DNA of 64,000 nucleotides from Macrostomum lignano (Eukaryota). This document shows positions 1-27,124 of this stretch, piece by piece. The translations under genes and the position numbers were made by a program. The first letter of the stretch is position 1. The number at the start of each line of letters is the position of its first letter. The stretch covers positions 124,001-188,000 of the forward strand of contig NIVC01000860.1 in NCBI GenBank assembly GCA_002269645.1, given 5' to 3'. The notes below the pieces were generated by a model, which was not told where the DNA came from, ran no database searches, and was given only the letters and a program-made list of their open reading frames with translations.

Positions 1-558
1 TTGCCGGATCAAGAAGAGGTCATAAGACAACAACCACAACAACCACAGCCACAACAGCAGCAACCACAACAGCAGCAACCAAAACAACAACTACAACAAC
101 CACAACAGCAGCAACCACAAACACAACCACAACCACAACAACCTCCACCGCCACAGCAACAAATCACACCCGAACAAGTACTAGAAGCACTTGAAAAAGC
201 AGGGCCAAATGAGATTTCCCAGTACAAAGATACAAACCCTGATACTTGGCGACAATTAGAGCGGCTCTCCCCAGAACGAATGAAGCGAATCAATGACAGA
301 GTATTCACACCTCAACAAAGACAAGCGCCACATGACAGTTCCTCCTCTGACCAATCATTCGAATCACCTCCAAGCTCTTCCGGAAAAGGCATGCCTGAAT
401 TCTACAAGCGGTTAGCTGTTCTTCTAGGAGCGGCAAAGACCGGAATGAAAGACGAGAATAGAAAAGAATTTGTCAACATCCTGGACAAAATGCTTGAGAG
501 AAAATATATCGATAAAAGAGCAAGAGAACTTTTGCTTTCACGGTTTAACAAAAAATAA
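1..558 (+). CDS. Polinton ORF with Q/P-rich N-part and conserved-looking C-terminal helical domain (5' end probably outside the window)
   Basis: The C-terminus EFYKRLAVLLGAAKTGMKDENRKEFVNILDKMLERKYI resembles the RLxLLx(A/G)xxxAGN...NEIxxIxxxL motif common in small Polinton proteins. Confidence 0.6.
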   Translation: MPDQEEVIRQQPQQPQPQQQQPQQQQPKQQLQQPQQQQPQTQPQPQQPPPPQQQITPEQVLEALEKAGPNEISQYKDTNPDTWRQLERLSPERMKRINDRVFTPQQRQAPHDSSSSDQSFESPPSSSGKGMPEFYKRLAVLLGAAKTGMKDENRKEFVNILDKMLERKYIDKRARELLLSRFNKK

Positions 559-574
559 ATTTCTATTTAAAAAG

Positions 575-953
575 ATGCCGATTATTTTTTGAGAAAGACG
601 TGGAAAAATACTATGACAAAGAGGAACTTAATCTTATTAAACGCGGATCTGGACTTTTCCCTGCAGGCCACTATCCAAGAAAAGAACGCTCAGGGAACGG
701 TCTTGCCGATTTGATCGCTCAGGGGGCCAAGATTTTTAAGGTCATTGGAGAGAACAAAGAGAACATCAAGAACGTTGCCGAAGCGGCTGGCAGTGTAGCC
801 ACAGCAGCCAAAAAGATAAAGGATACTGTAACACCTAAACAAGAGATTCAACCGCTGGCTCCGCTGGCCCCAAATCCAGACAATGTGGACCCTGCAGTCT
901 ATGAGAAGATGAGAGCTAGCATTAAAAAGGGAAGCGGTTTCAAATTTGACTAA
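575..953 (+). pseudogene. Small basic Polinton core-like (pVII-like) protein with one extra T near its start
   Basis: AAAAG-ATG at 575 gives MPIIF-stop. Removing one T from the T6 run at 585-590 joins it to ORF 600-953 (MPIIFEKDVEKYYDK...). The protein contains KRGSG, RSGNG and KKGSG motifs. Confidence 0.55.
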
Positions 954-996
954 AGGGTACTTTTCAAGGGTACAAGACATGTAAGAGTATAAGACT

Positions 997-1101
997 AGTC
1001 CTGAAATGACACATCTAAGTCCCAAAATGACACATCTAAGTCCCAAAATGACACATCTAAGTCCCAAAACGACACATTCAAGTCCCGAAATGACACATCT
1101 T
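997..1101. repeat. 21-bp tandem repeat (AGTCCCAAAATGACACATCTA) x ~5, intergenic in the Polinton
   Basis: Directly visible; explains the MTHLSPK ORF repeats. Confidence 0.9.
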
Positions 1102-1145
1102 CTAAATGATTTATTATTTAATTTTTTTTTCAATCATAGAAAAAA

Positions 1146-1946
1146 ATGGACTTCTCAAACGACTTCAATCCTCACTGGACGCGTAATCAGATTAAGTTTT
1201 CTCATCACGAGTCAATCCCGAGTCACTTCAGATGCATTGTTGTTGGTTCGTCAGGTTCAGGTAAAACATTCAGAGTCTTTAACATGCTTCTTAGACCTGG
1301 ATTTATCGACTATGACACTCTGCACATCTACTCTCCCACACTGTATAAAGATGAGTATAGAATGCTGATTGCAGGGCTTCAAAACAAGCTGAACAAAGAG
1401 GACATTATTGCATGTTTTAATAACCAAATGAGCCTTCCCAGTAACCCTGAAATTGTAGCTGCCGAATATGCAAAGCACCTCAAAGACAATGAAAAATGGC
1501 AGAACATTAAAGTGTTCACCTATGGAGATCCACAGGCTGATCCAAAGACCAAACTTCTACCCCAACCAGATGAGCTAGAAAAGGGGAGAAAGCATTTGAT
1601 CGTCTTTGATGATTGTATGACAGGCCCACAGAAGCAGATAGAAAACTATTTTACAAGAGGGCGACATAACAATTGCAATGTAATTTACATTGCACAGAAT
1701 TGGTTCGAGCTCCCGAACAAAACAATTCGCGGGAACTGCAATCTGATTCTCCTGTTTCCAACCATTCCACAGGACAGGTTAAAAAGATTTTACAATGAGG
1801 TCATTGCGCCTGCCTATTTCATAAATCCAACAAAAAACTCAAGCAGAAAGATTTCACAAGAGGAATTCGTTAATCTTTGCTATGACAAGTGGAATCAGCC
1901 TTACCAGTTTGTGATTATCAGCAAAGAAAAAAGAACTGTAATTTAA
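1146..1946 (+). CDS. A32/FtsK-like DNA packaging ATPase
   Basis: Walker A VVGSSGSGKT, Walker B LIVFDD, A32 motifs RGRHNN and IYIAQ. Confidence 0.92.
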   Translation: MDFSNDFNPHWTRNQIKFSHHESIPSHFRCIVVGSSGSGKTFRVFNMLLRPGFIDYDTLHIYSPTLYKDEYRMLIAGLQNKLNKEDIIACFNNQMSLPSNPEIVAAEYAKHLKDNEKWQNIKVFTYGDPQADPKTKLLPQPDELEKGRKHLIVFDDCMTGPQKQIENYFTRGRHNNCNVIYIAQNWFELPNKTIRGNCNLILLFPTIPQDRLKRFYNEVIAPAYFINPTKNSSRKISQEEFVNLCYDKWNQPYQFVIISKEKRTVI

Positions 1947-1962
1947 AATTTGCTATTAAAAG

Positions 1963-2781
1963 ATGTCGATAAACTTTGCAGGTGAATCCATTTCTGGCAA
2001 CAGCGCTCTTACATCAGCTCAGATATCCATCCTTGACAGGCGATATATCAACAGCGACGAAAAGATCCCAGAGATCAAACTGAATAAAAACAGACTGAAA
2101 GCCCTAGAGCGCTCCATGCACCAGTTGCAAATAAACATGGAAGATCTCAGGCTTAAAGTAGCTAGGCAGAAGTTTGAAAGTGATAAGCTTTATGCGCCGT
2201 TGTTAAACGCAACTAATGAACTAAGGTCAGAAATAACTTCGATAGTCTCGCTAATCAACGGCTTGAGATCATCAGTTAATCTTCTGGGAAATTCCACTGA
2301 TAGACGGATGCGTATTCTCGAAGGAGGAGTTTTCACAAACACAGCTAAAGTAAATAATTTAGAAGAGTTCATGAACCAGTCAACAGCGTTGCATGATAGA
2401 ATTAAAGAAAACGTCGCAACCAACACAGTTAAAGTCAATAATTTAGAAGAGTTCATGACTCAGTCAACATCGTTGCATGATCGAATCAAAGAAAGACTTG
2501 AAGCATTAAAGAGAAAGGATGTATCACACAGTAGCTATCTAAACGGAATGTATAGCTCCTGGGGTAAAATACTAAGGAGGCTTGATCGTCTGGAGAGAAC
2601 ACTCAATCTTCGTGACATTGCTATTGATGAAGCAGAATCTGCTGCTCGTCCGGTCATGTCTACAGATCGAGTAGAAGGAGCTCTGGACCCCGCCGGAGTA
2701 ATCCGGCACGCTCTCAAACGTCAGCCGCCCAGCCGCTGCCTGCTGGACTCGCGATCCTCCGGCGTCACGAGAGCCGCCTAG
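1963..2781 (+). CDS. Coiled-coil protein with an internal 28-aa duplication (possible fibre/structural protein)
   Basis: 272-aa ORF after AAAAG-ATG; heptad-rich; TNT(A/V)KVNNLEEFMxQSTxLHDRIKE occurs twice (84-bp period). Confidence 0.6.
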   Translation: MSINFAGESISGNSALTSAQISILDRRYINSDEKIPEIKLNKNRLKALERSMHQLQINMEDLRLKVARQKFESDKLYAPLLNATNELRSEITSIVSLINGLRSSVNLLGNSTDRRMRILEGGVFTNTAKVNNLEEFMNQSTALHDRIKENVATNTVKVNNLEEFMTQSTSLHDRIKERLEALKRKDVSHSSYLNGMYSSWGKILRRLDRLERTLNLRDIAIDEAESAARPVMSTDRVEGALDPAGVIRHALKRQPPSRCLLDSRSSGVTRAA

Positions 2782-2872
2782 ACAACCGGCGGTGCAGATG
2801 GAATTATCAAAAAGAAAACAGATCTTTCAACCGGGTAGTTTTGTAATTTTTTTATTTTTTCTAGAGAAAAAA

Positions 2873-3598
2873 ATGGCCCAACAAAATTCTCTATACGATC
2901 AGTCTCAATACGTTGAACCTAAAATACCGACAGCACCAAACCCAATGGCACCGAATTCGAACACACAAAGCCTGAATGCACCGAATCTGAATGCACCTCA
3001 ATATGAGCAACAAAAACTCTACCCCGTCATTACTTGTAACTCTCAGCAGTTTCGACTAGTGGAGATTCAAAAAATGCGAGATGATCTTGAAAAAAATATT
3101 TTCCACAACACAAAGAAAATTAAGCGCTATGACAGCCACTGTAAATTTTTCGACTACAGCAATATGATTCTAGGATCTGTGTGTGTTCTAACTGGGTCTG
3201 CTGCAGCTGTCTCAGTGTTGCCAGTCATCACAGCCCCAATCGCAATCCCGCTCGGCTCTGCTGGTGCTGCATGTGGACTTATTTCAGCAATTACTGGAGC
3301 ATTAGCACGAAACAGGCGAAAAAAACTAAAGCAGCTACAGGAGAAGCAAGTAAAAGAGAAAGGGGTGCACACTTCAATCATAGGGTACATTTCAAGGGCA
3401 ATCGAGGATAAGTTCATTTCAGAGGATGAGTTCAAAACCATTCAGGATCTTTATGAACAATCAATTCGAATGAACTTGAACATGGTCGGTACTGATGACA
3501 TGAGTCAGCTGAGAAATGAACTCGAGAAAGTTCTTCAACATTATGCGGAAAGAAGGACAACGAGAAATTCGGTAAGGACAACGAGAAATGCACAATGA
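2873..3598 (+). CDS. Polinton/adintovirus membrane-associated protein (LYP...FRL...helical hairpin...ISEDEF family)
   Basis: Start at the A6-ATG at 2873. Motifs KLYPV, QFRLVEI, a Gly/Ala-rich hydrophobic hairpin, a basic stretch and ISRAIEDKFISEDEF. Confidence 0.65.
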   Translation: MAQQNSLYDQSQYVEPKIPTAPNPMAPNSNTQSLNAPNLNAPQYEQQKLYPVITCNSQQFRLVEIQKMRDDLEKNIFHNTKKIKRYDSHCKFFDYSNMILGSVCVLTGSAAAVSVLPVITAPIAIPLGSAGAACGLISAITGALARNRRKKLKQLQEKQVKEKGVHTSIIGYISRAIEDKFISEDEFKTIQDLYEQSIRMNLNMVGTDDMSQLRNELEKVLQHYAERRTTRNSVRTTRNAQ

Positions 3599-3602
3599 AC
3601 CC

Positions 3603-4004
3603 CTATGAAACACAGGTACGAATAATTTCCTTGTAGGTCTTTCGTGTTTTGGTCATTGCATACAAAACAGTCATGCACAGCTCACCGCAAATATCACTGC
3701 TAAGACCTTGGAGAATAAAGTCTGAGCGATAAATTTTTTTATTCTTTTTTCCCTTCAAATAATTTCTTAGCTCTTCTGGTACTGCCGTCCCATAGCTATC
3801 GAAGTAATAACACTTGTGCTTGCGATCGGGATCAATCACCCAGCAAACCCAATGAGATCCTGGCTTATCGGTGGTGTCAAAGTTCATGATGCCGCATTCC
3901 TTTCTTAGAGGAAAATCAGGCAGAGTGTCCCTCATAAATATTCCTCTAAAGTTTGGGATTTCCAGTTCGTTAGCCAAATCTTCAAGAAAGTTATTTGTCG
4001 TCAT
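3603..4004 (-). CDS. Adenain-like cysteine (maturation) protease
   Basis: Catalytic residues in the expected order: GSHW (His), YFDS (Asp), LQG (oxyanion Gln), DICG (Cys). Confidence 0.9.
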   Translation of the reverse strand: MTTNNFLEDLANELEIPNFRGIFMRDTLPDFPLRKECGIMNFDTTDKPGSHWVCWVIDPDRKHKCYYFDSYGTAVPEELRNYLKGKKNKKIYRSDFILQGLSSDICGELCMTVLYAMTKTRKTYKEIIRTCVS

Positions 4005-4089
4005 TTTTATGTTATTTTTATGAGTTTTATTAAACTTTCTCTTAAACCTAAACCCAATCTCCTAATCTCCTAAACCCAACCTCAACCTC

Positions 4090-4925
4090 CTAAACCCAAT
4101 CTCCTAAGCCTAATCTCCAATGCCCGAACGGTAGACTGTTAATATTGTCATCAAAAATGAATCTCTTGTTATCTGCACCTGACAGACCAATCTTCTTTTG
4201 CTGAATTGTGTGAATAATATGGTTTTTAGATTGTAGCTTTGAGAACTCATGTGATGTCTTTTTGTTGCAATTCAAGGCGTCTCTGTATTAAGCTTCATTA
4301 ATTTCCTTCCTAACCACACGTTTCGGAATTCCCTTTGATTTTTTGATTGGGTCTGACGACTCACATTTTATAAAATAGGACTTTGCTCTCAACCCAATAA
4401 ATTCAGTGATTATGTCACCAGCAATCTCGTCCTTCATTTTCCCAATCACTTTCTTGTTAGTGGCGTCAAACACTTGATCGCCATTCAGTGTCCTGAAAGA
4501 TTCATCATACTCAGACAAGTCAAACAAATCTTTTTGCTGCAGCATGTCCTGATAAATGTCTTCTGTTTGAATGTCCATAATAAAACTGTCTGTGTCAGTG
4601 TACAAGAGTTTCATTTTATCCTTGTACTGCTGCTTCATGCCATAGAAGAACTGGTACATCAGACGTTTTGATTCGTCGAGAACAGTGACACCTGTATAGA
4701 TCGGCTTGCGCAGCGTCACCTTGGTTTTGTAAAATATGATCACACCTAAGTAGCTATTAAAGATATGGAGTTCTTTGAATGTTGGCTTTGACATATTTGC
4801 CTGAATAACAGCAGGCTCTGATGAGGTAACAAGTTTCAGGTTTGTTCTTTTCCGCTCATTCTCAAGAGTCTTGCCATAGACAGAGTTGTTGGCTAACTTA
4901 AAGAGGTTCTTGTCAAAGTCGTTGG
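4090..4925 (-). pseudogene. polB: Protein-primed PolB, C-terminal part (motifs B and C) with an in-frame TAA at 4290-4288
   Basis: Reading on from the TSD gives TN-DFDKNLFKLANNSVYGKTLEN (motif B), then YTDTDS (motif C) and KSKGI. After the TAA the same frame continues YRDALNCN...DNKRFIFDDNINSLPFGHW, a typical Polinton PolB tail. Confidence 0.92.
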
Positions 4926-5239
4926 TGTGACATTGTGGTGATATGCTAGTGTATTTTTATTATTGCAATATTATGCTTTGTGCATTCTTAGTTAGTTAGT
5001 ATTTGCGTGCGCGCTGATTGGCTAGTGTGTTTCAGTGCATGTGCACTGCGTCGGGTTGTTTGCGTTTTACGCGTGGCTAGCATGGTGGGGTCTGAGCAGT
5101 CAGGCTAACCACCCTCTTTAGTCCTAGGGTTGATGAATAAGAATAAACAAGTCATATAAGAGCCCAGTTGTGTGTACTGGCTCTCCACGTTCAACTTTCC
5201 TACGCATTCACTACAAGCCTTTAGCTTCAATATATTACA
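4926..5239 (+). repeat. 5' LTR (314 bp)
   Basis: Matches 9264-9577 except T4939 vs C9277 by eye comparison. Confidence 0.97.
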
Positions 5240-8200
5240 ATGGCGACGAGCTCCGCGCTGGGTGGAATTCCAATACTAACTGCCAATACTAACATTGAGG
5301 TCTGGCTGGAACGGCTCGACCATTACTTTACCTGCAAGGAGGTAAAGGAAGAAGCTAAAGTGGCCACACTCGTCACTGCCATCGGTGAGGAGGCATATAC
5401 CGTGTTGAGAAACTTGTGTCTACCTGCCAAGGTCTCCGACAAGTCTCTGGCCCAGTTGACCAAGATTCTGGAGGACCACTACGCTCCAAAGCCGTCCGAG
5501 TTGGCAGCCAGATTTCGGTTCCAAAGACGCCTGCAGCAGCCTGGCGAGAGCCTTGCCGAGTTCGTTGCCAGCCTGAAGGCCTTGTCAAGTCACTGCAATT
5601 TCAGTGCTTCCCCGTGTGAGCACTGTCACTTCGGCGGCACTCTAGACGAGCGACTGCGAGACCAGCTGGTTTTCGGCCTGCACAGCGATGCCTACCGAGC
5701 GAAGCTGCTGGAGGAGAAAAATCCCACCTTCAACTCGCTGCAGGAGAGAGTTCTATCCCTCGAGGCAGTGGAGCGGTCATCATCGGAGATGGCGCAGAAG
5801 TCAGCAGCACAAGTAGCCCAGCTGCGCGCTCACCAGCTGAATAAGCGCCAAGGACCCAAGCCAGCGCTCGAAGGTTCGCAGCAGCGCAAGGGCGGTGGCA
5901 ACAACAGCAGAAGCGGAGTCGGCAGCAGCGGCAACACCGGCAGTGGCACCTGTGCAAGCTGCGGCGGTGCTCACAGTCGCCAGCAGTGTAAGCTGCGAGA
6001 CGCTAAATGCCACGCGTGCGGAAAGACGGGCCATATTCGCAAGGTCTGTCGCTCAGCCAAGCTGCATTTTCTACAAGAAGCGACACCGACACCACCACCG
6101 GAAGCCTCCGCGCAGCTGCCGATTTTTGCCGTGCAGCCGGCTGGTGGCAACGCGGGTCCGACGGTGCAGCTGCAAGTCAATGGCCAGCCATGCCGGTTCG
6201 TCATCGATACGGGCTCCGCCGTCACTCTGATGCCCGAGTTTCTGCAGCTCATGCTTCTACCGCGGCTCTCCATGTCACCGTCCGTTGCTGTCCTACGCAC
6301 CTTCACCGACGAGCAGTTCCGCCCTCTCGGCCAAGCGTTGGTCTCCGTTCAGCAAGATGGTCAGCAGCTGCAGTTGCCCCTGCTGATCGTCAAGCACGGC
6401 GACACGGCCCTGCTCGGTCGCGACTGGCTGGCCAAGCTGCGGCTAGACTGGCCGAGCATCATGGCGCAGGTTCACGCCGTCCACGACTCCGAAGACATCG
6501 GCAGCATCGTCAAGGAGTTCGCACCAGTCTTCGAGGACGGCCTAGGCGAGTTCCGGCACGGCCAGGTGCGGCTTCAAGTCTCCGAGGACGCTCAGCCCAG
6601 GTTCTTCAAGCCGCGGCCGGTCCCCTACGCGCTGCGCGAGCGCGTCGACGCCGAACTGCAGCGCATGGAGTCCAGTGGCATCATAACCGCCGTGAAGCAC
6701 AGCGACTGGGCTGCGCCGATCGTGCCGGTCGTCAAGAAGGACGGCAGCGTTCGGATTTGCGGAGACTACAAGCTGACATACAACGCGGCGAGCAAGCCGG
6801 AGCACTACCCGCTGCCCCGCATCGAGGACCTCTTCGCCAAGCTCGGCGGCGGCTGCAAGTGGACCAAGCTCGATCTGTCCAACGCCTTCTTGCAGCTTCC
6901 TCTGGCCGACGACAGCAAGGCGTTTCTCACTATCAACACGCCCAGAGGCCTCTTCCAGGTCAATCGCCTCCCATTCGGCATAACGAGCGCCAGCGCGATC
7001 TTTCAACGCACCCTGGACACCCTGCTGGGAGACCTGGATGCCGTCCAAGTCTTCGTCGATGACATTCTGGTCACCGGCAGCACCCTGCAACAGCACAAGA
7101 GGAACCTGGCGCTGGTCCTGCGGCGCTTGAAGGACGCCGGCCTGCGGCTCAACAAAGAGAAATGCAAATTCTTCGAAGACTCTGTTGAGTACCTCGGCCA
7201 TCGGATCGACGCCAGCGGACTCAAGCCGCTGCCGGACCGGGTCGCCGCCGTCCAGGACGCGCCAGCACCCAAGGACGTCAGCCAGCTGCGCTCGTTTCTG
7301 GGCATGCTAGCGCAGTACTGCAAGTTCCTGCCCAACTTGTCTACCGTCCTGGCGCCGCTCCACCAGCTCTTGGCCAAGAACACCCGCTGGTCATGGGGGC
7401 CACCGCAGCAACAGGCATTTGCAGAGGCCAAGCGGCTGCTGCTCGAGTCACCAATTCTCGTGCACTACAATCCGAATCTGCCGCTGCGATTAGAGTGCGA
7501 CGCCTCTCCCTACGGCCTGGGGGTCGTCTTGACGCACCGCATCGACGACAAGGACTGCGCGGTCGCCTTCGCTAGCCGCAGCCTAACAGCAGCGCAGCGC
7601 GGCTACTCCCAGCTGGACAAGGAGGCGCTGGCCATCATGTTTGGTCTGCACCGGTTTCACCAGTTCCTCTATGGCCGGCGGTTCACCATCGTCACCGACC
7701 ATCTGCCGCTGCTGGGTCTGCTGGGCGAGCGCAAGGGCATTCCGGCACACGCGGCCGCCCGGATGCAGCGCTGGGCCATTCGGCTGTCGAGCTACGACTA
7801 CACGCTGGAGTTCCGGCCGACCGAAAAGCATGCCAACTGCGACTCGCTCTCGCGGCTGCCGCTGCCGCACCTGTTCGAGGAGGAGCCGGCCGTCAACTCG
7901 CTGCTGCTCGACGAGGGCTCCGGATCGGCCATCACGGCGCTGGCGGTGGCGCGGCACACTAGGACAGACGTCTCACTCGGTCGGGTGCTTCGCTGCTTGC
8001 AGACCGGCGCGCCCATCGGCGACGACCTGAGCGACTTCGCCCGGCGGCAGTCGGAGCTGTCAGTCGACCAAGACTGTGTCCTGTGGGGCGCAAGGGTCGT
8101 TGTGCCTACAGCGCTGCGTCAACGCGTGATCCAAGAGCTACATCAGGCGCATCCCGGCATCAGCAGAATGCGCGCCCTGGCTCGCAGCTACGTGTGGTGG

Positions 8201-9202
8201 CCCGGCCTCGACGGCGACCTGGAAGCTGCGGCCAAGTCCTGCCGCACCTGTCAGCTCAACCAGCCCGACCCGCCCAAGGCGCCGGTGCAACCGTGGCCTC
8301 TGCCATCCGAACCGTGGGAGCGCCTGCACATCGACTTTGCCGGTCCGGTCGACGGTCATACGTACCTGGTGGTAGTCGATGCTCATAGCAAGTGGCCGGA
8401 GGTCCAGCGGATGCGCGGTACAACGTCGGCGGCCACCATCGCGGCTCTGCGGGAGATGTTCGCGCGCCAAGGCATTCCGCGCACCCTGGTGTCCGACAAC
8501 GGGCCGCAGTTCGCCTCCGCCGAGTTCGCCGAGTTTACCCGGGCCAACGGCATTCGTCACGTGTTCTCGGCGCCGTTTCATCCCGCCACCAACGGCCAGG
8601 CCGAGAGGTTTGTGCAAGTCCTGAAGCGACATCTGCTCAAGAGCGGCCACTCTGACGTCGAGCTTCAGCGACTGCTGCTCAGCTACCGCAACACCCCACA
8701 CAGCATCAGCGGCGCAGCCCCGAGTCAGCTGCTCATCGGCCGTCGGCTTCGCTGCCGTCTGGACCTCCTGGCACCGTCGCTGGCTGACGACGTCCAACGG
8801 CGGCAAGAGCGGCAGCTGCAGGGACGCAGACCAGCGCGCGAGTTTCAGCCGGGTGATCACGTCCTCCTCCGCGACTACAGCGCCGGCGCGAGAGCCGGCG
8901 ACACGCCACGCTGGGCTGAGGGTGTCGTCACGGGCGCCGGCAGCCGCAACTACACGGTTGACTCGGAGCGAGGCCAGCACTTCCGGCACGCTGATCAGCT
9001 GGTGGCAGCCCGCGCTGACTCCGCCGACACCGTCCATTCGCCGCCTGCTACGGATGACGGCGCCGCCCGAGTGACAGCGGCGTGCAAAGCGCTGACGCCG
9101 CAGCCGTCGCCGACACGGCCTGCGGGGCGTCATCCGGCACTGACGACGAGCATGCGAGCGGCGTGCGACACGAGCCGGGCACTACACGGCGGTACCCACT
9201 GA
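5240..9202 (+). CDS. Gag-Pol polyprotein (Gag with two Zn knuckles, PR, RT, RNase H, IN)
   Basis: CASCGGAHSRQQC and CHACGKTGHIRKVC; IDTGS protease; FVDD RT; DAS...DKEAL...TDH RNase H; HHCC and HIDF...SDNG...QAER integrase; Gypsy domain order. Confidence 0.97.
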   Translation: MATSSALGGIPILTANTNIEVWLERLDHYFTCKEVKEEAKVATLVTAIGEEAYTVLRNLCLPAKVSDKSLAQLTKILEDHYAPKPSELAARFRFQRRLQQPGESLAEFVASLKALSSHCNFSASPCEHCHFGGTLDERLRDQLVFGLHSDAYRAKLLEEKNPTFNSLQERVLSLEAVERSSSEMAQKSAAQVAQLRAHQLNKRQGPKPALEGSQQRKGGGNNSRSGVGSSGNTGSGTCASCGGAHSRQQCKLRDAKCHACGKTGHIRKVCRSAKLHFLQEATPTPPPEASAQLPIFAVQPAGGNAGPTVQLQVNGQPCRFVIDTGSAVTLMPEFLQLMLLPRLSMSPSVAVLRTFTDEQFRPLGQALVSVQQDGQQLQLPLLIVKHGDTALLGRDWLAKLRLDWPSIMAQVHAVHDSEDIGSIVKEFAPVFEDGLGEFRHGQVRLQVSEDAQPRFFKPRPVPYALRERVDAELQRMESSGIITAVKHSDWAAPIVPVVKKDGSVRICGDYKLTYNAASKPEHYPLPRIEDLFAKLGGGCKWTKLDLSNAFLQLPLADDSKAFLTINTPRGLFQVNRLPFGITSASAIFQRTLDTLLGDLDAVQVFVDDILVTGSTLQQHKRNLALVLRRLKDAGLRLNKEKCKFFEDSVEYLGHRIDASGLKPLPDRVAAVQDAPAPKDVSQLRSFLGMLAQYCKFLPNLSTVLAPLHQLLAKNTRWSWGPPQQQAFAEAKRLLLESPILVHYNPNLPLRLECDASPYGLGVVLTHRIDDKDCAVAFASRSLTAAQRGYSQLDKEALAIMFGLHRFHQFLYGRRFTIVTDHLPLLGLLGERKGIPAHAAARMQRWAIRLSSYDYTLEFRPTEKHANCDSLSRLPLPHLFEEEPAVNSLLLDEGSGSAITALAVARHTRTDVSLGRVLRCLQTGAPIGDDLSDFARRQSELSVDQDCVLWGARVVVPTALRQRVIQELHQAHPGISRMRALARSYVWWPGLDGDLEAAAKSCRTCQLNQPDPPKAPVQPWPLPSEPWERLHIDFAGPVDGHTYLVVVDAHSKWPEVQRMRGTTSAATIAALREMFARQGIPRTLVSDNGPQFASAEFAEFTRANGIRHVFSAPFHPATNGQAERFVQVLKRHLLKSGHSDVELQRLLLSYRNTPHSISGAAPSQLLIGRRLRCRLDLLAPSLADDVQRRQERQLQGRRPAREFQPGDHVLLRDYSAGARAGDTPRWAEGVVTGAGSRNYTVDSERGQHFRHADQLVAARADSADTVHSPPATDDGAARVTAACKALTPQPSPTRPAGRHPALTTSMRAACDTSRALHGGTH
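5241..5250 (+). promoter_or_regulatory. Primer-binding site TGGCGACGAG, complementary to the 3' end of tRNA-Ser(GCU)-type tRNAs
   Basis: One base after the LTR; its reverse complement is CTCGTCGCCA; it overlaps the gag ATG. Confidence 0.8.
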
Positions 9203-9250
9203 GGGTTCGAGGCCCACCTCAGAGACTTCAGCTGTGAAGGGGAGAACTGA

Positions 9251-9263
9251 CTCAGGGGGGAAG
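9251..9263 (+). promoter_or_regulatory. Polypurine tract
   Basis: CTCAGGGGGGAAG immediately before the 3' LTR. Confidence 0.85.
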
Positions 9264-9577
9264 TGTGACATTGTGGCGATATGCTAGTGTATTTTTATTA
9301 TTGCAATATTATGCTTTGTGCATTCTTAGTTAGTTAGTATTTGCGTGCGCGCTGATTGGCTAGTGTGTTTCAGTGCATGTGCACTGCGTCGGGTTGTTTG
9401 CGTTTTACGCGTGGCTAGCATGGTGGGGTCTGAGCAGTCAGGCTAACCACCCTCTTTAGTCCTAGGGTTGATGAATAAGAATAAACAAGTCATATAAGAG
9501 CCCAGTTGTGTGTACTGGCTCTCCACGTTCAACTTTCCTACGCATTCACTACAAGCCTTTAGCTTCAATATATTACA
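9264..9577 (+). repeat. 3' LTR (314 bp)
   Basis: Direct repeat of 4926-5239, followed by the TSD GTTGG. Confidence 0.97.
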
Positions 9578-12500
9578 GTTGGTTGCTTTGGTCCTAAACT
9601 GGGTATTCTTATCAATGTAGGGTTTCATCCACGCTTCCTCTGTAAATGTAAGAGCCCGGTGAACTTTAGTGACCCTGCAACCAAGTGAGATAAAATACTG
9701 AAGCAGTTTGTAATGGATTTTGTAACGTGTCTTGTTGTTTAGATTCTGTGTTAGCTTCTCTGTATGTTCTTTTTCTGTTCCTGACAGGTGCCAAGTTCCA
9801 TTATTATCATTGGGAGTTTCGATTATTTTCGGGCACTTGATGTTCTCTGGGAAGGGTGGAAAGTCAGAGAAATAGTCGTGAAGCTCTGGTGGAATGTAAA
9901 CATCAACCTCATAAATGGCAGCCAATGAAAAGTCCCACTTTAGTTCTGATGAGGGTAGCCATCGAAAATCTCTAACTGGAAGATCTTGACTCATCGCCCA
10001 CCCGTAGAGATTATTAGCGTCCAAGTAAGTAATGTAGTTTGAGGGCTGCTCCTTATTGTAAGATTCAATGTAGGGATTGTTTGCTTTTGCATACCTGTTA
10101 ACGCAAATTGAGATCCCCCCTCGTTTTGACGATTCGACAAAATTGTACATGTCAATGTCTGTAAGAAGTTCAATGTACCAATCTGGATCTTGATCCCATT
10201 TCATTTTAAGCAAAGATTCCCAGCTAGTGGCAGGCAGAGACACATAATGTGCTGGATCGAGGCCATATGCTGTGTACCAGGTGTATCTGAAGGTTTCAAA
10301 CACATCAGCCAGCAGAAACACATCTGTGTAGAGGTAAAGCAGGTGATACTGGAAGAAGTTTTGACAATTAAAGTAATTATAGACATGCTTCGCGTGCTCA
10401 TAGTCTTTGTCAGAGATTCCAGAGTCTGTTAGCTTTGAAAAGAACTTCTCCTGTGGTGGTAAACCTTCTTCAAATACGTGATACCCAGTAATATTTTCAT
10501 AGGGATATAAGCCTTTGGTTCTCAGGAGTTTAAATGATTCATCACTGTTGTAAATTTTACTTGCAAACATCTTTGTATATGTACATTGTTCATCTTTTAG
10601 ATTCTTGCTTAGTTCGTTTAGACTGGCAGCTAGAAATTGATATGAATCCTTCAGTCTTATTTTACCTGTACCCGAATTATCCTGTTTAATATCAACACAC
10701 TTAAACTTCTCCTTGTTCTCTGCGATGCAATCAAGGTGTATGTCTGGAATCATGCCGATTTTTTCAACTATTAAATGCATGTCATAGTTCTTTGCGTTGT
10801 GACAAAATATCGTTAGATCATGAATGTTCGATTTTAGCTTTAGATTACAGGTGTTATGCGCTGCACCTCTAAATTTCCCAGTAAAGTGGCAGTGGTCCCT
10901 AACGGTCGGGTTTTTAATATTAGTGCAAGTTAAATGTTTCCTGCAGATGTGGCAATGAGTTGCTGATAGGAAATTGCTTTCATCCTCCTCAGACATACTT
11001 ATTGGAACAGGTTGAAGGGTGCTAATTACTCTTTGCAACTCTAACATTCTGGCAATAAACTGCTCCACACACTGCTCTCCAAAGAAATAATTATACTCAA
11101 CAAGTCCTTTTGTAGTAATAAAGGCATATGCTACTGAGTTGGGGACATGTTTTTGAGTTTGAGTTTGTTTTTGAGTATGAGTTTGTTTTTGAGTTAATTT
11201 TTGAGTTCCTGGCATGATTGAGCATTCGAAATCAGCATATACAACAAATGGGAGCTTCTCCATCTTGTGATAGTTCTTAAACCGGAGATACTTCTCTTCA
11301 GCTGAAGGAAGAGAGCAGTTTGTTGGGTGATCCTCGCATGATAATTCATGCTCTGTTAGTTTTTCAAAGCGCTCAGGCCCACTGTAATGCTTAAGGCACA
11401 AGCGGCAGATGGCAACAGCCTCGTGATGATTATTCAACTGCTTGTGAATGAGTCTTGAAAGATCTTTAATCCAAACATAGTGAGCCTCCTCTAGTAAATT
11501 ACCAATCACTAGAAGATCCACTTCAGTCCGCCTTTTCCCCTCAGGATCTGAAACGTCTTTGCTACATCTGACCGGTTGAACTTTCTCAGTTTTTTCACTC
11601 CATTCAAAGACTGTGATTCTAATTTTGTTATTAAACACTTCTTCTAGCTTTGGGATCTGAGAGATCGCCAAGCCTCCTTTGTCAAACCTGATTCCCTTCT
11701 TTTCGCATTCGATGAGATAGTACTTGAAATAATTTTGATAATTTGAGGTTCTTTCGGGGTGGTGAGGGACACTATCATAAAGAAGTGCAGAAAGAACTGC
11801 CCATAGAGCACAGCAATTGTCTTTATTTTTAACATTTATGCAAGCTTTTTTGCCGGCTAGCTTATGCGGGAGCTCTATATAAGAGGAGGCTTTAAGTGGG
11901 TCATATTTCATGACCATGACAGTCGCTCTTTGAATCCCTCCCACGACCCATCCAGAACCTCTGGATGTAAACGCTTCAATTTTCTTAGTGACATCTTGAA
12001 GGAAAGGATCTAGTGTGTCTGTAGGGGTGAATGGCTTTGCCTTTGTTGTCATGTAATACTCGAGATGCTCAGTGGGTTTTGCAGGCATATAAAACGCAAT
12101 CTTTAATGATATCTGTAGTTTAAAGGTCTTGCGTGTTTTGAGTGTGTGATCAACAACTGATTGGATGCTGTCTTTATAGTCGTAGATGTTTGCGGTGGTA
12201 CCGTTGGTGTCGTTAATTGGGATTGTGTACTCGATGTAATGTTCTGTAAACTTCCTCTGTGCAAAATTAATCTCTTCAGTGGCAAGCTCCGACTCTTTTA
12301 AATGGATTAATTGCTCTAATTTCTCTTGTTCCTGCTTATTTTGTGGGTACTTTGCTTTTTCACCAGTAAGAGTTTCATATTTGTTAACTAAGTTGCGACT
12401 CCTCTCTTGGTGTTCCTTTGCAGGATTTTGCATAGGCGCATATTGGTTGGATTCTAATTGATTGATGATTTCCAACTGTTTTTCATAGCTTCCCAGGTGA

Positions 12501-12622
12501 CCAGGGTCGGTGTTAAACTTTTGTTTACATGCTTCTCTTAGTAAATTACTTTTGTCTTGAAATGAGACGCCTTTTGAAAAATGTTTGTTGACTAAATCTT
12601 TTGCTGGATTAGCTTTTGGCAT
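9578..12622 (-). pseudogene. polB: Protein-primed PolB, N-terminal part (terminal-protein-like region, exonuclease, endonuclease VII-like insert, motif A), interrupted by the Gypsy element
   Basis: YADFE (Exo I), HNAKNYD (Exo II), YLYTD (Exo III), YLDANNLYG (motif A); the frame is open for about 1015 codons up to the TSD. Confidence 0.95.
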
Positions 12623-12746
12623 TTTTTTCTCTAAAATAAAAAAAATTTTTGAGGGTGACCACCCTGATAGAAAAGTTGAACTGTTTCTACATCCTATAAG
12701 TAGCGCTAGGTTTATGAAGCTGGATAAAGTGGGGTTTTAAACCTCA

Positions 12747-13202
12747 TCACATCCGCATTATTGTAAACCCAGCATTGTGCAGTGTCATGATAGCTTTGAC
12801 AATGTCAGACTTGCTTATAGAATTTTCATGCTCACAATCATCACGATCATAACAATCGGGGCAGCCCTCTCCTGCCTTAATTGTTATACCTTTGTCTCTT
12901 GCAATCTTTTGCAATTCAAGCTGGTGGGCTCTATCATTACCAGCTTTAACAGCAGTTGCTACACCTCCAGCTACACCACCTGCGGCACTTACAGCGCCTG
13001 CAATAGTCGGGATAAGAGCTGCTAATGGTAGGATTCCTCCTAACTTTTCATCTGTGATGCTGTGTCTTTGCTCATTACACTGAACTATTTGCTGCACGGG
13101 ATCGACTTTTACTTTGGCACCTTTTATTGATATAAGACCTGGTCTCTTTGATTCAATGATTTTATTGAGTTTATTGATGGTTCTGGTTTCAATCTTTGTC
13201 AT
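12747..13202 (-). CDS. Adenovirus pX/mu-like core protein precursor
   Basis: KLGG-ILPLAALIPTIAGAVSAAGGVAGG closely recalls adenovirus pX MRGG-ILPLLIPLIAAAIGAVPGIA. Confidence 0.7.
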   Translation of the reverse strand: MTKIETRTINKLNKIIESKRPGLISIKGAKVKVDPVQQIVQCNEQRHSITDEKLGGILPLAALIPTIAGAVSAAGGVAGGVATAVKAGNDRAHQLELQKIARDKGITIKAGEGCPDCYDRDDCEHENSISKSDIVKAIMTLHNAGFTIMRM

Positions 13203-13219
13203 TTTTTTATTTTAATATT

Positions 13220-14257
13220 TTAATTAATTTCTGTGTCAGCTGGTATCACTAGGAGTTCAGCTCTAGTGAATGACCGCGTGGGGGATTTAGGGTTAAAGGC
13301 TTGAGATAAAAAGTAATAGTCACCGGAGTCGGAGGTAAAATGTCTGTCTATTTTATGTACATCAAGGCTGAAGTATGGATCTGTAGCTCTTCTTTTGGTG
13401 TCTTTCTCTAGCTCTCCAGGTAGATATAAAAAGCGTAGAAACTCAGAGTTTGTCAGTATGTATGGTGATTCAACTCCTGGAAGCTTAGGGTAGTTCGAGG
13501 TGTGTTTTGTGTTGTGTGTGTTGTGTGGGGTTGTAGTGTTGTTGTCTGTTCTTTGAGTTGCCTTAAGTTCGACAGTGTCTTGTTTAATTGCATGGGATGG
13601 TTTCAATCCAGTCATGCGCGTGACTTCATTGTTCAGTTGCTCTATAACAGTGGGGAGTCTTTCTGTCCACTTGGTATAGTACTGCCCCGCACTCAGTTTG
13701 AGTTCTTGCGCTGTCTGCTTAGTGAATAGTCTCTTGGCTAGAGTTAGATTGAATCTTTCCACAAAAGCCTGGTCTCTGTGCAAGTTTGTTCTGCCATAGC
13801 GAATCTCTGTGTTTTTCTTTTCCATAAGGGATTTCACTACACCCATGAATTCCTTACCCGGGTCGGTCATAAAGATTTGGGGGTATGTGAGCGGAGAGTT
13901 TTTATAAATATCTTGCAGTGCGCTGGCAACAACCTCTGACTTCTTCGTCTTGAGTGGGCGAGCTTCCTTATATCTGGAAGCAATGTCAATAATTGTAAGA
14001 GCATACTTGTAGCCTGAGTCATTGGGGAGAAACAAAAGATCTGCTTGGTGCGCTTCATTAGGTTTATAGATGCTAAAGTGAGGTCTTGTAAATTTTACTG
14101 GTGGGAAATAGACTTGAAAGACAGCCTGCTTAGAGAGCCACTTTTCTACTGTAGCTTTTGGTTCCTTACTCAGCTCCATGAGTTTACTAACGGCATTTTT
14201 GCCTACAAAGAATCCTTTGTCGCTGTAGTAGAGTTTTTTAAGTTTCTGATCTGTCAT
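13220..14257 (-). CDS. Polinton retroviral-like (rve, DDE) integrase
   Basis: HQADL...IIDIASR...TDPGKEF...QAFVERFN; intact 345-aa ORF. Confidence 0.93.
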   Translation of the reverse strand: MTDQKLKKLYYSDKGFFVGKNAVSKLMELSKEPKATVEKWLSKQAVFQVYFPPVKFTRPHFSIYKPNEAHQADLLFLPNDSGYKYALTIIDIASRYKEARPLKTKKSEVVASALQDIYKNSPLTYPQIFMTDPGKEFMGVVKSLMEKKNTEIRYGRTNLHRDQAFVERFNLTLAKRLFTKQTAQELKLSAGQYYTKWTERLPTVIEQLNNEVTRMTGLKPSHAIKQDTVELKATQRTDNNTTTPHNTHNTKHTSNYPKLPGVESPYILTNSEFLRFLYLPGELEKDTKRRATDPYFSLDVHKIDRHFTSDSGDYYFLSQAFNPKSPTRSFTRAELLVIPADTEIN

Positions 14258-14287
14258 TTATTTAAAAAGAAAATTTTAAATAAAATA

Positions 14288-14788
14288 ATGCAGCGCTCTG
14301 GTGGTAAGTTAGATTCACATGGACTGATAGAAAAGCTTCCTCATCCGAACAAAGGCTGGACACTTCCCGGCTATAAATATTGCGGGCCTTTGAATCCACT
14401 TGAAATACAGCTAGATAAAAACAATAATCCACATCCTGGGCATGAGCCTGTGAATGAGCTAGACTCTGTCTGCATGTGGCATGACGTTAAATATAGAGAT
14501 TTTCCTGAGGAGAAGAATCGTTGGGACAAAGAAATGCTTAAGAGACTAGACAATATAGGGGCTTCAAGCGGATTTCGCGAGTCTATTGCTAGGAAATTAG
14601 TCAATGCGGTTATTTTTGGTAAGTCTAAGTTGGGGTTGGGGGTGTACGCCGAGGGCGGGTGTTTGGGGAGAGAGGGCGGGTGTGCGGAAGGAGAGGGCGG
14701 AGGCTTGGGAGTAGGGTTTATTTTGTGCGCTCCTAACAAGAAATTGGGAAGACTGCTGAAAGAGCTGGGGGTAGAGAGGGGCGCTTGA
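14288..14788 (+). CDS. Parvovirus VP1u-type phospholipase A2 protein
   Basis: Start at AAAATA-ATG 14288. Ca-binding loop LPGYKYCGPLN and catalytic segment PVNELDSVCMWHDVKY (His-Asp). Confidence 0.85.
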   Translation: MQRSGGKLDSHGLIEKLPHPNKGWTLPGYKYCGPLNPLEIQLDKNNNPHPGHEPVNELDSVCMWHDVKYRDFPEEKNRWDKEMLKRLDNIGASSGFRESIARKLVNAVIFGKSKLGLGVYAEGGCLGREGGCAEGEGGGLGVGFILCAPNKKLGRLLKELGVERGA

Positions 14789-15393
14789 ATCGGGAAGGGC
14801 ATGAGCAAGTGTGGATTTGAGTAAGTACAGTTTTTTATTCCCTAAAGAGTTGCGCACAAGAGAGATTCTCATTCTCCAGAGAGCTAAGAGCAGAAAATAA
14901 AAAGTCAACCGCTTCGCCGCCATTAGCATGCATGGACTGTGTATGTTGAGATTCCCTCCTTGATTGATATTGATTATTGGCCAAATTGCGAGGCCAGTTG
15001 GCCCGCCGAGTTGGCCTCGGCCCGCCGATTTGGCCTCGGAATGTGGCCCGCCCACAGACCATGGGCCCGCCTAGTTGGTCTATACGGTATGAAAATATGG
15101 GGGGGGGTAGAGAGGGGCGCTTGAGTCGGGAAGGGCTTAACTATTATTCTCAGCCCTAGCCAAACGCAACAGCTGCATTTTGAAAAGGGGTGGGGTAACT
15201 GCTATTTGCTGAGGGAGCGCAGCCCTGTTCCACGCGTGCATTCCTTTCCGCTTTGACAACTGGAGGGAAGGAAGCGGGTGGAGGGAATCGATCGCTCGGT
15301 AGCTAGTTAAAGCAAGCAAGAAAATTCAGCTCCTTTTGCTCGCTCACGTTCTTCGTCACGCAATTCTGCACCGTTGTGACTGCTGATTTCATT

Positions 15394-15736
15394 ATGTTGT
15401 AAGTTTATTCATTTTTTACTTACTGAAATTCTATCCTGTGTGAGGAATTGAAAAATCTCTTATTTTAATTAAATCTTTATTTTTAGTTCACAAAAAATTA
15501 CGTTCTACTAGACCGACCTAGAAAATCTCCAAGGTCGCCTTATTGAAGGATTAGATGCCGACGAACAGGCATCAGAGCGAATTCAAGAAGTTCTCCACAA
15601 TTTCTTCAATGAAAAAGTTGAGAACCAGCGAATTCGTTCAAGAGCGGCCGAGGAGACCCAGGTTCGCAACTATGCCATGAGAACCGAAATGGTGTTTGAC
15701 GAACGTCGCCGATCATTTGTTGCTGATGAAGATTGA
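15394..15736 (+). pseudogene. Possible two-exon micro-gene (ATG TT|GTAAGT, 88-nt intron, TTTTAG) with an in-frame TAG at 15509
   Basis: Consensus donor and acceptor; the spliced frame stays open for 74 codons after the TAG (TDLENLQGRLIEG...FVADED). Confidence 0.3.
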
Positions 15737-15774
15737 CTTCTAAGTTATCAACAATTTTTTTTCCAGGATTTTAT

Positions 15775-16160
15775 CAATGTAAGCTACTCATAGTAGTCTT
15801 CTCAACACTTTCGTGGATTTAAAGGATTTTTTTCCAGGATTTTTTAAACTCGTGCCAATTCCTGACAATACAGGAATTCCTGACAATACAGGAAAGTCTT
15901 TTTACTGGATTTTTTCAGGATTTTATCAATGTAACCTACTCATAGTAGTCTTCTAAACACTTTTCTGGATCTCCAGGATTTTTTTAAACTCGTGCCAATT
16001 CCTGACAATACAGGAAAGTCTTTTTACTGGATTTTTTCAGGATTTTATTAATGTAAGCTACTCATAGTAGTCTTCTAAGCACTTTCCTGGATCTCCAGGA
16101 TTTTTTTAAACTCGTGCCAATTCCTGACAATACAGGAATTCCTGACAATACAGGAAAGTG
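15775..16160. repeat. Three ~120-140-bp tandem units with an internal AATTCCTGACAATACAGG subrepeat
   Basis: Directly visible. Confidence 0.85.
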
Positions 16161-16415
16161 CTGTTCACAAAATGACTGGGAGGAAAATCAATATTATTCT
16201 GGATCCGAAGAATATCGATTTTGGATTGTGCGAGGATCTACAATATCTTGTTCTTTCTCTACCTTCATTCATTTCCAACCTTGCAACTAGCTTGCACGTC
16301 GCGGAAGAAAATTCTCAGCCGGATAGCTCTGCACACTCAGTGTCTGCTCTTTCCTCCTTATTTCCTCCTGTTTTATGTAAATATACTTGCGAATAAATGA
16401 ACTCAGTATGTTTTT

Positions 16416-16658
16416 TTAACACAATTGCCTAATTATTTCTGCAAAGTTATAATAGCTGTCGTAATATTTTACATAGGTTACTCCATACTTATGAAACCAG
16501 TGTCTTTGGAGAGCTAGATTAATATTAGGGACATTGATATCAATGCCGGGCCAATATTTTCTCATGTATTCGCTGCATTCAAGTTTGCATTGGTACTTGG
16601 ATTTGTACAATGGATTAGGCTGAGTATAATAAGAACCTGGAGAGACAACTGGAAACAT
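16416..16658 (-). CDS. Small aromatic-rich orphan ORF (80 aa) of the Polinton
   Basis: Preceded by AATAAAA-ATG like the other element genes; ordinary amino-acid composition. Confidence 0.5.
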   Translation of the reverse strand: MFPVVSPGSYYTQPNPLYKSKYQCKLECSEYMRKYWPGIDINVPNINLALQRHWFHKYGVTYVKYYDSYYNFAEIIRQLC

Positions 16659-16862
16659 TTTTATTGAGAATTTATTATTTTTCGGAGGATGAGCACCCTG
16701 GGTTAGGGGATTTAAAGTCTTAGGGATCTGGTTTCGCGTTGCGGATTGAATGTGGGGAGAAGAATACAGATTATTTTCTGATTGTTTCGAAGATGCTATG
16801 GGTGGATGTCAGTGGATTATGTCTGTGTCAGTGAGCATAACAGGTATCAGTGGACACCTGCT

Positions 16863-17245
16863 CTGATTCTGTCAGGGATAATATGGATGGATTTAATGGG
16901 ATTATGGAGGACGTTTTGTGAGCGAGTGCGACCCCCCTTTTTTTTCTGATTCTGTCGGGGATAATATGGATGTATTTAATGGGATTATGGAGGACGTTTT
17001 GTGAGCGAGTGCGACCCCCCTTTTTTTTCTGATTCTGTCGGGGATAATATGGATGTATTTAATGGGATTATGGAGGACGTTTTGTGAGCGAGTGCGACCC
17101 CCCCCCTTTTTTCTGATTCTGTCAGGGATAATATGGAGGGATTTAGGTGGATTATGGAGGAGGTTTTGTGAGCGAGTGCGACCCCCCTTTTTTTCTGATT
17201 CTGTCGGGGATAATATGGATGGATTTAGGTGGATTATGGAGGACG
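16863..17245. repeat. ~83-bp tandem repeat x ~4.6, subterminal
   Basis: Unit starts at 16863, 16946, 17029, 17113 and 17195. Confidence 0.9.
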
Positions 17246-17779
17246 TGAAAAATTTTGTCCCAGAAGCCCCCTCATGCCTTCTACTGTCGTCACTAAGTTG
17301 ACGGGGGAGCTCAGCGCTTTGCACAAGGGCCGGGGCAGAGGGATAGCGCCCAAGACCACGGGTGAGGATCTAGCCCCCAAACCTTGACCTAGGGCCCACG
17401 CAGGAGGGGGCTGGAGCTAACCCTGGCAGGGTTAGAACTATAAGGGGAGGGGGGACGAGAAACGCACTTTAGAGGGAGAGGGGTGTGCCACGCGCGTGCC
17501 AAGAAAGTACATCAGTAGCAACTTTGGCGGCATGTGAGTTAAACTCTGTTACTCACTCTTAAGTCTTAAGCTCTTGGTTTCCTACAGACAGACAGACAAA
17601 CTTTACTGTGTCTGTGTCTTTACTGTGTCCTTACTACTTTACTGTGGCTTTACTGTGTTTTTGTAGACATTTTAGGGAAAACCACGAGTCCCATCTGAAT
17701 TATTAATTCGCAAGACGAAAAATTAAGGCAAAAATTTTTATGGAGACTAATATAAAATAATCAAACGCCCTTCTAATCA

Positions 17780-26179: not shown

Positions 26180-27124
26180 CACCTGGGTATGGAGATGTGG
26201 TATGATCTGCTGTCAAAGCTGAAAAATCGCATCAATCGGACGCCATGTTGCCATGTTATGCAAGACTTTCTGCAGTTTTACTTGTAATACATACCACTAT
26301 AACTATATCTAACTATAACTATACTTAAACTTTCGGTGAAGAGCTGAAAACAATCTTTAACTTAACTAAACTTACTGTAAATGTGTTTAACAGATAACTG
26401 TTAGAATTTTTTATTTATACGCTGGCTAAGTACGAAGCGGTTATTCGACCATCCCTTCAGTTCATCAGGCCTTGCCTCTGTTTATCGGTTTTTCTCTTTC
26501 ACCGTATAGTTTAGGGCTGTTCTTCTTATTTCTCTTTCCCTCGCTGCCCTCTGATTGGCTCTTCAATCTCGCCTCTCTTCAGCCGCGCACTCCACCCCTA
26601 CTTTTTTCTTATTACGAGTGCGTGTACACTCAAGTCCACCTACTTATTTGAATGTCTTATAGATATAATCGTTTTGCACCTTCAACCCCACGTAGCGATT
26701 AATTTTATTCCTAAAATATATTGTTATCTTTTTTGTGTAGTCTTTACCAGTAGAAGTATCAACGGTAGAAACGTTGATACAGAGCCACTTAAAACAGTAG
26801 ACAATTTCCTCTGTTGCGCCGGAATGGAGCAACGCAAGCACACGGAATTTCTGAAAACGGGCTAACTTTTTTCTTTTCTCTGCAACTTCTCAAAACAGGA
26901 ATCTAGTCGCCAACCCTCCAGACTGTCGAGATTTTCAACGATTCTGCCAGCAGGTTGGATTTTCCTCTCAGATTCCCCTGGTGCCATCGGTTAAAAAGGC
27001 CGACGGCGTCAGGGTGATGACGAAATGCTCAAGAGACCTGCTTTGGATGTCCAGCAGTTGAGGTTTGCTCACTGTCGAGGCTTGGTGAGCGAAACTAGAA
27101 AAATATGAATCAGGGTGTCAATAG

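Follow-up and report, generated by a model that had tools for sequence, protein, structure and literature searches.

A cluster of virus-like genes at the start of a 64,000-nucleotide stretch of the Macrostomum lignano genome (contig NIVC01000860.1, positions 124001 to 188000; this whole stretch is referred to here as the window) raises the question of whether a transposon of the Polinton type also travels, in this host, as a virus. A preliminary description, made from the letters of the window alone, had seen there an adintovirus-like Polinton, inferred to derive from a particle-forming virus, whose capsid genes, left terminal inverted repeat (TIR) and 6-bp target-site duplication (TSD) should lie upstream of base 1. 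From the adjoining 10 kb to the left (L001, contig positions 114001 to 124000, its last base preceding window base 1) and from sister copies elsewhere in the assembly, we conclude that the element integrated recently and has since been disabled, and that the capsid-encoding Polinton family to which it belongs probably travels at least in part in virus particles, or did so until very recently. We place the probability of this reading at roughly two in three.

A complete insertion with capsid genes

The element extends from 3.66 kb left of base 1 through position 17285, with GTCGTC duplicated on both sides, and measures about 16.3 kb when a nested gypsy retrotransposon is subtracted. Its left TIR opens with AGTAGAAGG at L001:6344, and its right TIR closes with CCTTCTACT at 17285, directly followed by the second GTCGTC; the ends (AGTAGA...TCTACT) begin with AGT, as a variant of the common AGT repeat. 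The TIRs are nearly identical over their outer 285 bp and more diverged in their inner part, with 91% identity overall. The left TIR and TSD are found directly where they had been expected, and the right end, first placed at 17640, moves to 17285. As ends we reject both the ACTACT at 17633-17638, which has no TSD and lies in host repeat DNA also present at empty sites, and an AGTAGT at L001:6091, which has no TSD and lies within DNA present at empty sites.

Four flank-similar loci were fetched. Two of them, on homologous contigs (L004 and L006), represent the empty site, where one GTCGTC lies between the joined flanks. The remaining two loci are more distantly related (about 81% near the site), and no flank junction was found in them. 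Over 9,419 bp the right flank and one empty site are 99.57% identical, so the insertion is young. By its gene set, size, TSD and termini, the element is a real, complete Polinton insertion, as described for animal Polintons and adintoviruses (PMC8502044, PMC8097293, and PMC11071308; these and all later sources are cited from partial text). The Polinton/Maverick features present are pPolB (split in this copy), an rve integrase, AGT-starting TIRs, a 6-bp TSD, and a packaging ATPase together with an adenain-like protease.

The major capsid gene and a likely minor capsid gene lie within 3.7 kb upstream of base 1. The major capsid protein (MCP) matches profile PF21738 at an expectation value (E) of 2e-5, just below the curated cut-off. 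Modelling from a single sequence reached a predicted local distance difference test score (pLDDT) of 30, and a 73-sequence alignment was used instead, giving a pLDDT of 91.7. The best Foldseek match of this model is the Sputnik MCP (E 2.9e-17, TM 0.66), followed by iridovirus, PBCV-1, mavirus, MELD, and adomavirus proteins, all of them double jelly-roll capsids; the MCP profile gave nothing useful against PDB sequences. The predicted fold confirms the double jelly-roll MCP of polintoviruses and adintoviruses, as had been foreseen. The minor capsid gene that had also been foreseen is likely represented by a gene for a 287-aa protein, taken as the penton from its position, size, conservation, and Atlas neighbours, which are unnamed viral proteins at 0.98; this protein has no match in Pfam or PDB sequences. 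Its gene is one open frame in 20 of 29 copies, with a ratio of non-synonymous to synonymous divergence (dN/dS) of 0.05-0.18.

A young family under selection

Exact matches in the assembly number 233 for an MCP 24-mer, 242 for a pPolB 24-mer, and 346 for a terminal 22-mer, with 0 for the reversed controls. These counts are lower bounds with respect to sequence variants, and some loci stand on more than one contig, so that distinct insertions are fewer; an earlier MCP 29-mer, with 35 matches, captured a sub-variant only and was replaced by the 24-mer. The family comprises about 170-240 young copies. Among 663 MCP candidates, 98 were scored; all are 97-100% identical, and 96 are full length without stops, which excludes the capsid-less transposon that the preliminary description had set as the alternative to a virus.

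We examined 34 element regions, the window copy included. They came from two sources, loci with two MCPs and paired terminal matches among the first 100 of the 188 listed, and the sample leans to complete elements; a palindromic insertion that stands on two contigs is represented by both in the counts of 29 and 31 copies, and one was dropped from the dN/dS, private-variant, and distance analyses. An exact 6-bp TSD borders 24 of the 31 two-ended copies and a TSD with one mismatch borders 2, and no copy has a 7-bp TSD. All six core genes are present in 21 of the 29 tabulated copies.

Compared in pairs, open copies have a dN/dS of 0.07-0.09 for MCP, 0.03-0.14 for the ATPase, 0.20-0.36 for the protease, 0.21-0.25 for pX, 0.20-0.33 for PLA2, 0.32 for a hydrophobic hairpin protein, 0.29-0.33 for a small open reading frame (ORF) within the TIR, and 0.30-0.51 for a coiled-coil protein. 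When the variants in each alignment column were counted across all copies of one type, the corresponding polymorphism ratio (pN/pS) over nine gene pieces was 0.06-0.17 for shared and 0.17-0.47 for private variants. The lowest private value is that of MCP (20 synonymous against 13 non-synonymous variants, pN/pS 0.17). Decay in place would give a private pN/pS near 1, which argues that most of the variation arose in a replicating pool where the virion genes mattered. Judged by these ratios, purifying selection acts on the capsid, ATPase, protease, pX, and PLA2 genes, private variants included, and MCP and pPolB have been kept at about 1:1 by their exact 24-mer counts. The same selection logic has been used to argue for reinfection (PMC8097293). 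The inferred descent from a particle-forming virus is in this respect supported by selection on virion genes.

Traces of replication

The two ends of a copy resemble each other more than the ends of different copies do: in the outer 200 bp, left and right ends differ by a median of 0.5% within a copy (n=27) versus 6.5% between copies (n=702). Inverted repeats range from 240 bp to 4.7 kb, most measuring a few hundred to about 800 bp, and the long forms include 1124 bp at 99.6%, 1618 bp at 99.8% with penton sequence at both ends, and 4.7 kb at 99.85%. The last of these are the arms of an 11.3-kb palindromic element without pPolB, protease, or integrase, flanked by the TSD CATCTA. The copy-back junction of the 1618-bp form occurs at 7 loci, and the three copies fetched share it exactly but differ in their TSDs; it is therefore likely that a copy-back product went on transposing. 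In addition, the capsid, Q-rich, and ATPase genes exist as types about 20% apart that occur in varying combinations, the nearest sister of the window copy switches from gene to gene, and the agreement of distance matrices is 0.78 for the neighbouring penton and MCP genes versus 0.13-0.16 for the distant MCP and pPolB.

In our analysis, panhandle repair during strand-displacement replication would be the best explanation of the matched ends, copy-back forms, and mosaics. Such a mechanism belongs to the adenovirus and Polinton replication model. A Polinton copy would be released as linear DNA and replicated by pPolB, which would start from a protein primer and displace one strand; that strand could then pair its own ends into a panhandle, whereby the ends become identical, and occasionally one end would be copied far into the other to yield copy-back forms. 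Co-replicating genomes could recombine into mosaics. The ATPase would fill a capsid made of MCP and penton with the DNA, proteins with G-G and G-x-G motifs would be cut by the protease, PLA2 and hydrophobic proteins may help entry, and the integrase would insert the DNA with a 6-bp duplication.

The palindromic element is one insertion on two homologous contigs, C1652 (28.6-39.9 kb, L061-L062) and C276 (289.4-300.6 kb, L063-L064), between which its 1.8-kb unique middle lies in opposite orientation relative to the flanks; this may reflect flip-flop recombination or assembly ambiguity. Partial left ends were also seen beside or inside full copies, in tandem or inverted (L070-L072 and L073-L075), and may be mutual insertions, concatemers, or assembly joins.

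Weighing the explanations

Several observations weigh against spread as particles or against the replication scheme. The evidence so far includes neither particles nor free linear DNA nor transcripts, and the family is known here from contigs alone; the penton fold and the entry functions are predictions. All six core genes are open in only 1 of the 29 copies, and pPolB is in pieces in 25. Most of these frame breaks are one-base deletions seen in a single copy: about 198 kb of sequence contain 247 deletions, 21 insertions, and 10 stops, with between 0 and 50 breaks in each copy. The pattern suggests that most are sequencing errors within repeats, and they may instead be real decay. The dN/dS values come from non-independent pairs of open copies only, 5 of the 31 two-ended copies have no TSD, 6 of 27 copies have ends that differ by at least 5% in the outer 200 bp, and the amphipathicity of a small basic protein with G-x-G motifs is not above that of its shuffles (69/500). 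Finally, an element lacking pPolB and integrase that nevertheless stands between TSDs may have had help in trans, which would weaken the argument from selection to reinfection.

A rival idea is that the family has become a self-synthesizing transposon confined to the cell, with the apparent selection left over from a recent invasion by free virus and the variation mostly older than integration. We consider this rather unlikely. It would agree with the lack of particle or RNA evidence and with the copies without MCP or pPolB that are still found between TSDs, and private variation is tiny (0.13-0.28% per site), leaving little time for visible decay. However, it is MCP that has the lowest private pN/pS, at 0.17 versus 0.21-0.30 for integrase and pPolB, its counts equal those of pPolB, and mosaics of capsid types 20% divergent have themselves been copied to new sites. 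For the replication step only, the matched ends, palindromes, and mosaics could be ascribed to chromosomal gene conversion or assembly error, which we regard as unlikely. The repeat interiors with their many probable sequencing errors, the oppositely oriented palindrome middle, and the five copies without TSD would fit such an origin; yet if reads had been cross-mapped, the two ends of a copy would have no reason to resemble each other more than any of about 340 near-identical ends elsewhere, and one junction recurs at 7 loci, the three examined having different TSDs.

A dependence on helpers, as in endogenous virophages of the mavirus type, with particles made only upon infection by a large DNA virus and the host perhaps gaining protection, appears improbable. 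Such a role is described for Polinton-like viruses of protists (PMC12220804, partial text), and the best fold matches of the MCP are virophage proteins, though at only about 10% identity. Against this, the ranking within a fold library reflects which structures have been solved, the named pPolB relatives come from animals (coral, molluscs, and a spider), and nothing here points to a helper virus, though no search for one was made.

Spread at least partly as particles, at present or until very recently, remains our preferred reading. A bolder form of it can be offered tentatively: the family could be a live endogenous DNA virus, with particles in the host, germ-line reinfection, free recombination, copy-back defectives integrating with trans help, and a second organism reached. 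The last element refers to a sequencing run labelled as a second organism (run X10, organism B), in which 65% of the sampled words were found and all 30 bins of the virion-gene stretch were covered, mostly at 95-100% identity; this may reflect a close relative, a matter of labelling, or transfer. Short-pattern scans of viral and metagenome contigs found no related locus, which given the method is no evidence of absence, and three runs guessed to be RNA covered all 30 bins, non-coding spacers included, as contigs only and are uninformative on transcription.

Gene content

The features of the locus are collected in Table 1. Pfam matches that reach the cut-off were obtained with five ORFs, those of the ATPase, protease, integrase, PLA2, and pX, and pPolB was recognised by motifs and homologues; these six genes stand as first described. 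Each of the three ATPase motifs is kept in 18 of 18 open copies, and the His, Asp, and Cys motifs of an adenain-like protease are present and conserved. pPolB has 4710 homologues at E<=1e-50, many of them annotated PF03175, and contains motifs that we take to be of exonuclease, polymerase, and vOTU type; a motif search only gave as OTU-type candidates a Cys at residue 268 and a His at 381 of the N-terminal piece, which found nothing useful when compared with PDB sequences.

The coiled-coil and hydrophobic hairpin ORFs are likewise real and conserved. The hydrophobic segment of the hairpin protein is conserved; the protein has no gasdermin match in Pfam or PDB, the Atlas places it near unnamed clusters only (0.92, low recognition score), and its profile found nothing useful among PDB sequences. 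The gene described as basic and core-like is a conserved ORF, but in this copy its start is out of frame with its body. Its product, without a family match in the profile scan, is likely a protease-processed virion protein. G-G or G-x-G motifs, which may be protease sites given the specificity of adenain, occur in this protein (three), pX, PLA2, and the Q-rich protein, and also in MCP and others. In an amphipathic-helix test of seven proteins, none was clearly above shuffles (best 30/500).

A role in membrane entry, which had been proposed for several genes, is likely for PLA2 and plausible for others such as the hairpin protein and pX, a grading that follows from the conserved PLA2 motif and from the hairpin protein having no gasdermin match; family matches exist for PLA2 and pX only, and the function is predicted. 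The small TIR ORF (79-80 aa) is often found at both ends of the element, is open in 28 of 29 copies, and has no Pfam match.

Table 1. Features of the Polinton locus. Positions are those of the window unless prefixed with L001.
Feature	Position	Strand	Remarks
Left TSD GTCGTC	L001:6338-6343	.	direct sequence
Left TIR	L001:6344-7131	.	~790 bp, 83-bp tandem repeats; 79-aa ORF at 6894-7133
Likely penton (minor capsid) gene	L001:7142-8004	-	two ORFs (157, 105 aa) here; one 287-aa ORF in sister copy
MCP gene	L001:8027-9313	-	428 aa; double jelly-roll, predicted fold
Q-rich protein, 404 aa, no named family	L001:9344 (start); 3' part window 1-558	+	dN/dS 0.18-0.28; one G-x-G motif near C-terminus
Small basic protein, three G-x-G motifs	575-953	+	open in 22/29 copies; dN/dS 0.14-0.21
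A32/FtsK-type packaging ATPase	1146-1946	+	PF04665 E 4e-6
Coiled-coil protein, no named family	1963-2781	+	conserved ORF; length differs among copies
Hydrophobic helical hairpin protein, 241 aa, no named family	2873-3598	+	conserved ORF
Adenain-like maturation protease	3603-4004	-	PF00770 E 2e-4; adenovirus proteinase 1AVP E 0.003
pPolB C-terminal piece	4288-4920	-	severed by gypsy insertion
Gypsy long terminal repeat (LTR) retrotransposon, nested	4926-9577	+	LTRs 4926-5239 and 9264-9577; 5-bp TSD GTTGG
pPolB N-terminal piece, 1013 aa	9583-12622	-	vOTU-type motifs and endonuclease VII domain
pX/mu-like protein	12747-13202	-	PF05829 E 1e-5; G-G motifs before hydrophobic stretch
Retroviral-type (rve) integrase	13220-14257	-	PF00665 E 2e-8, above cut-off
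Parvovirus-type PLA2	14288-14788	+	PF08398 E 8e-14; YCGP motif in 23/23 open copies
Variable region, 122-bp repeats	14800-16400	.	mostly private; 0-30% aligned to sister copies
Right TIR	16421-17285	-	~865 bp; second copy of small ORF at 16416-16658
Right TSD GTCGTC	17286-17291	.	direct sequence

Damage to this copy and its surroundings

The view of one packed element from 1 to 17640 holds in part: the genes are closely spaced, at 4-283 bp rather than 4-200 bp, and an unrelated gypsy element, which had gone unmentioned, lies among them. Its LTRs are 314 bp long with 1 difference, it retains an open 1320-aa gag-pol at 5240-9202, and its junction with the Polinton occurs once in the genome; its insertion is even younger than that of the Polinton. 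Because it separates the two pPolB pieces, this copy cannot supply its own polymerase. Two virion genes, the penton-position gene and the small basic G-x-G gene, are frameshifted here; both frameshifts are private and, with the same doubt as the other breaks, may be sequencing error or real decay. Multi-kb insertions in pPolB, integrase, or spacers were also seen in other sister copies (L058-L060, L052-L054, L065-L067, L076-L078, and L082-L085), one of them being another gypsy element, 42% identical to that of the window.

The Polinton is itself inserted inside another repeat (17286-19934 and L001:6090-6343), whose right part carries transposase-like remnants with a weak DUF4371 match (E 0.06) and which we would assume to be possibly of hAT type. 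To the left of the element lies an intronless 490-aa otopetrin-like ORF (L001:3920-5392, E 1.5e-13) with an 81-85% identical paralogous stretch at about 24500-26500, a pair that by sequence suggests local duplication. A reverse-strand fragment at 29700-29960, 71% identical to the region of the Q-rich and G-x-G genes, is likely a remnant of a more distant Polinton, and many tandem satellites with units of 4-38 bp fill 30800-62400.

Comparison with known systems

The closest described systems are the adintoviruses (Starrett et al. 2021, PMC8502044), and other animal Polintons. Like them, the element has a pPolB with candidate OTU-type motifs, an rve integrase, an FtsK-type ATPase, an adenain, a double jelly-roll MCP, a gene in the penton position, genes for PLA2 and a pX-like protein, and inverted terminal repeats, and it is integrated in an animal genome. 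An OTU-type domain in pPolB is also described in PMC11071308. In contrast to the available text on adintoviruses, a Beta-like pPolB is here combined with PLA2, which that paper ties to Alpha virion modules, and pX has a gene of its own, with no fusion to PLA2 in evidence. Beta adintoviruses have GasderminX and Cupiennin accessory genes; in Pfam and PDB the hairpin protein here has no gasdermin match, and the G-x-G protein has no family match in the profile scan. We provisionally call the pPolB Beta-like from its missing PF03175 match: the Alpha-type pfam03175 domain was not found at E<=1 in either piece (scanned separately, which lowers sensitivity) or in two close full-length homologues (P0118 and P0120). 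The nearest MCPs, which are unnamed, share 70-77% identity and the next about 44%, and identity to the nearest pPolBs is 33-43%; the family therefore forms a distinct lineage among adintovirus-like Polintons.

Vertebrate Mavericks (Barreat and Katzourakis 2021, PMC8097293) resemble the family in their size of about 16 kb, 6-bp TSD, AGT-starting termini, purifying selection on virion genes, and the absence of any particle seen, and they too vary in TIR length (46-1447 bp there, up to 4.7 kb within the one family here). They differ in copy number, with a median of 8 copies and with only defective ones in hosts that hold 172-287, whereas a similar count of young, open MCPs is found here, and in dN/dS, which is 0.001-0.0001 there and far higher, at 0.03-0.5, here. 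Coral polintoviruses (PMC11131425) likewise reach hundreds of capsid-bearing endogenous copies in an invertebrate genome; some corals have about 1,700 regions and 2,700-2,800 MCPs, so that the count here is high and no record, the coral counts not being given per family. Nematode Polintons (bioRxiv 10.1101/2023.08.22.554363) share the exchange of genes between Polintons and a nuclease domain inserted in pPolB; there, however, a whole pPolB class was swapped, whereas here capsid, ATPase, and accessory modules about 20% divergent reassort within the family. A fusogen of the nematode type was not recognised here, no specific search having been made.

Implications

Capsid-encoding Polintons are common in animal genomes and their gene set has already been described, so the value of this family lies in its use as a test case. 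Maverick particles are stated to be unobserved in the consulted text of PMC8097293, and virions were inferred from insect cell cultures in that of PMC8502044. No literature on comparable copy-back or palindromic Polinton forms was found by title or start of abstract, in a coverage that leaves out most subscription journals. The replication by-products seen here, namely two ends that agree within a copy, a copy-back lineage present at 7 loci, and a palindrome without polymerase or integrase, are relevant to the panhandle model of Polinton replication. This one young family, with about 230 capsid genes under selection and with presence and absence at homologous sites, is a strong place to seek animal Polinton particles. 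Should the family be a live endogenous virus, natural virions of an animal Polinton and the panhandle intermediate could be observed directly in its host.

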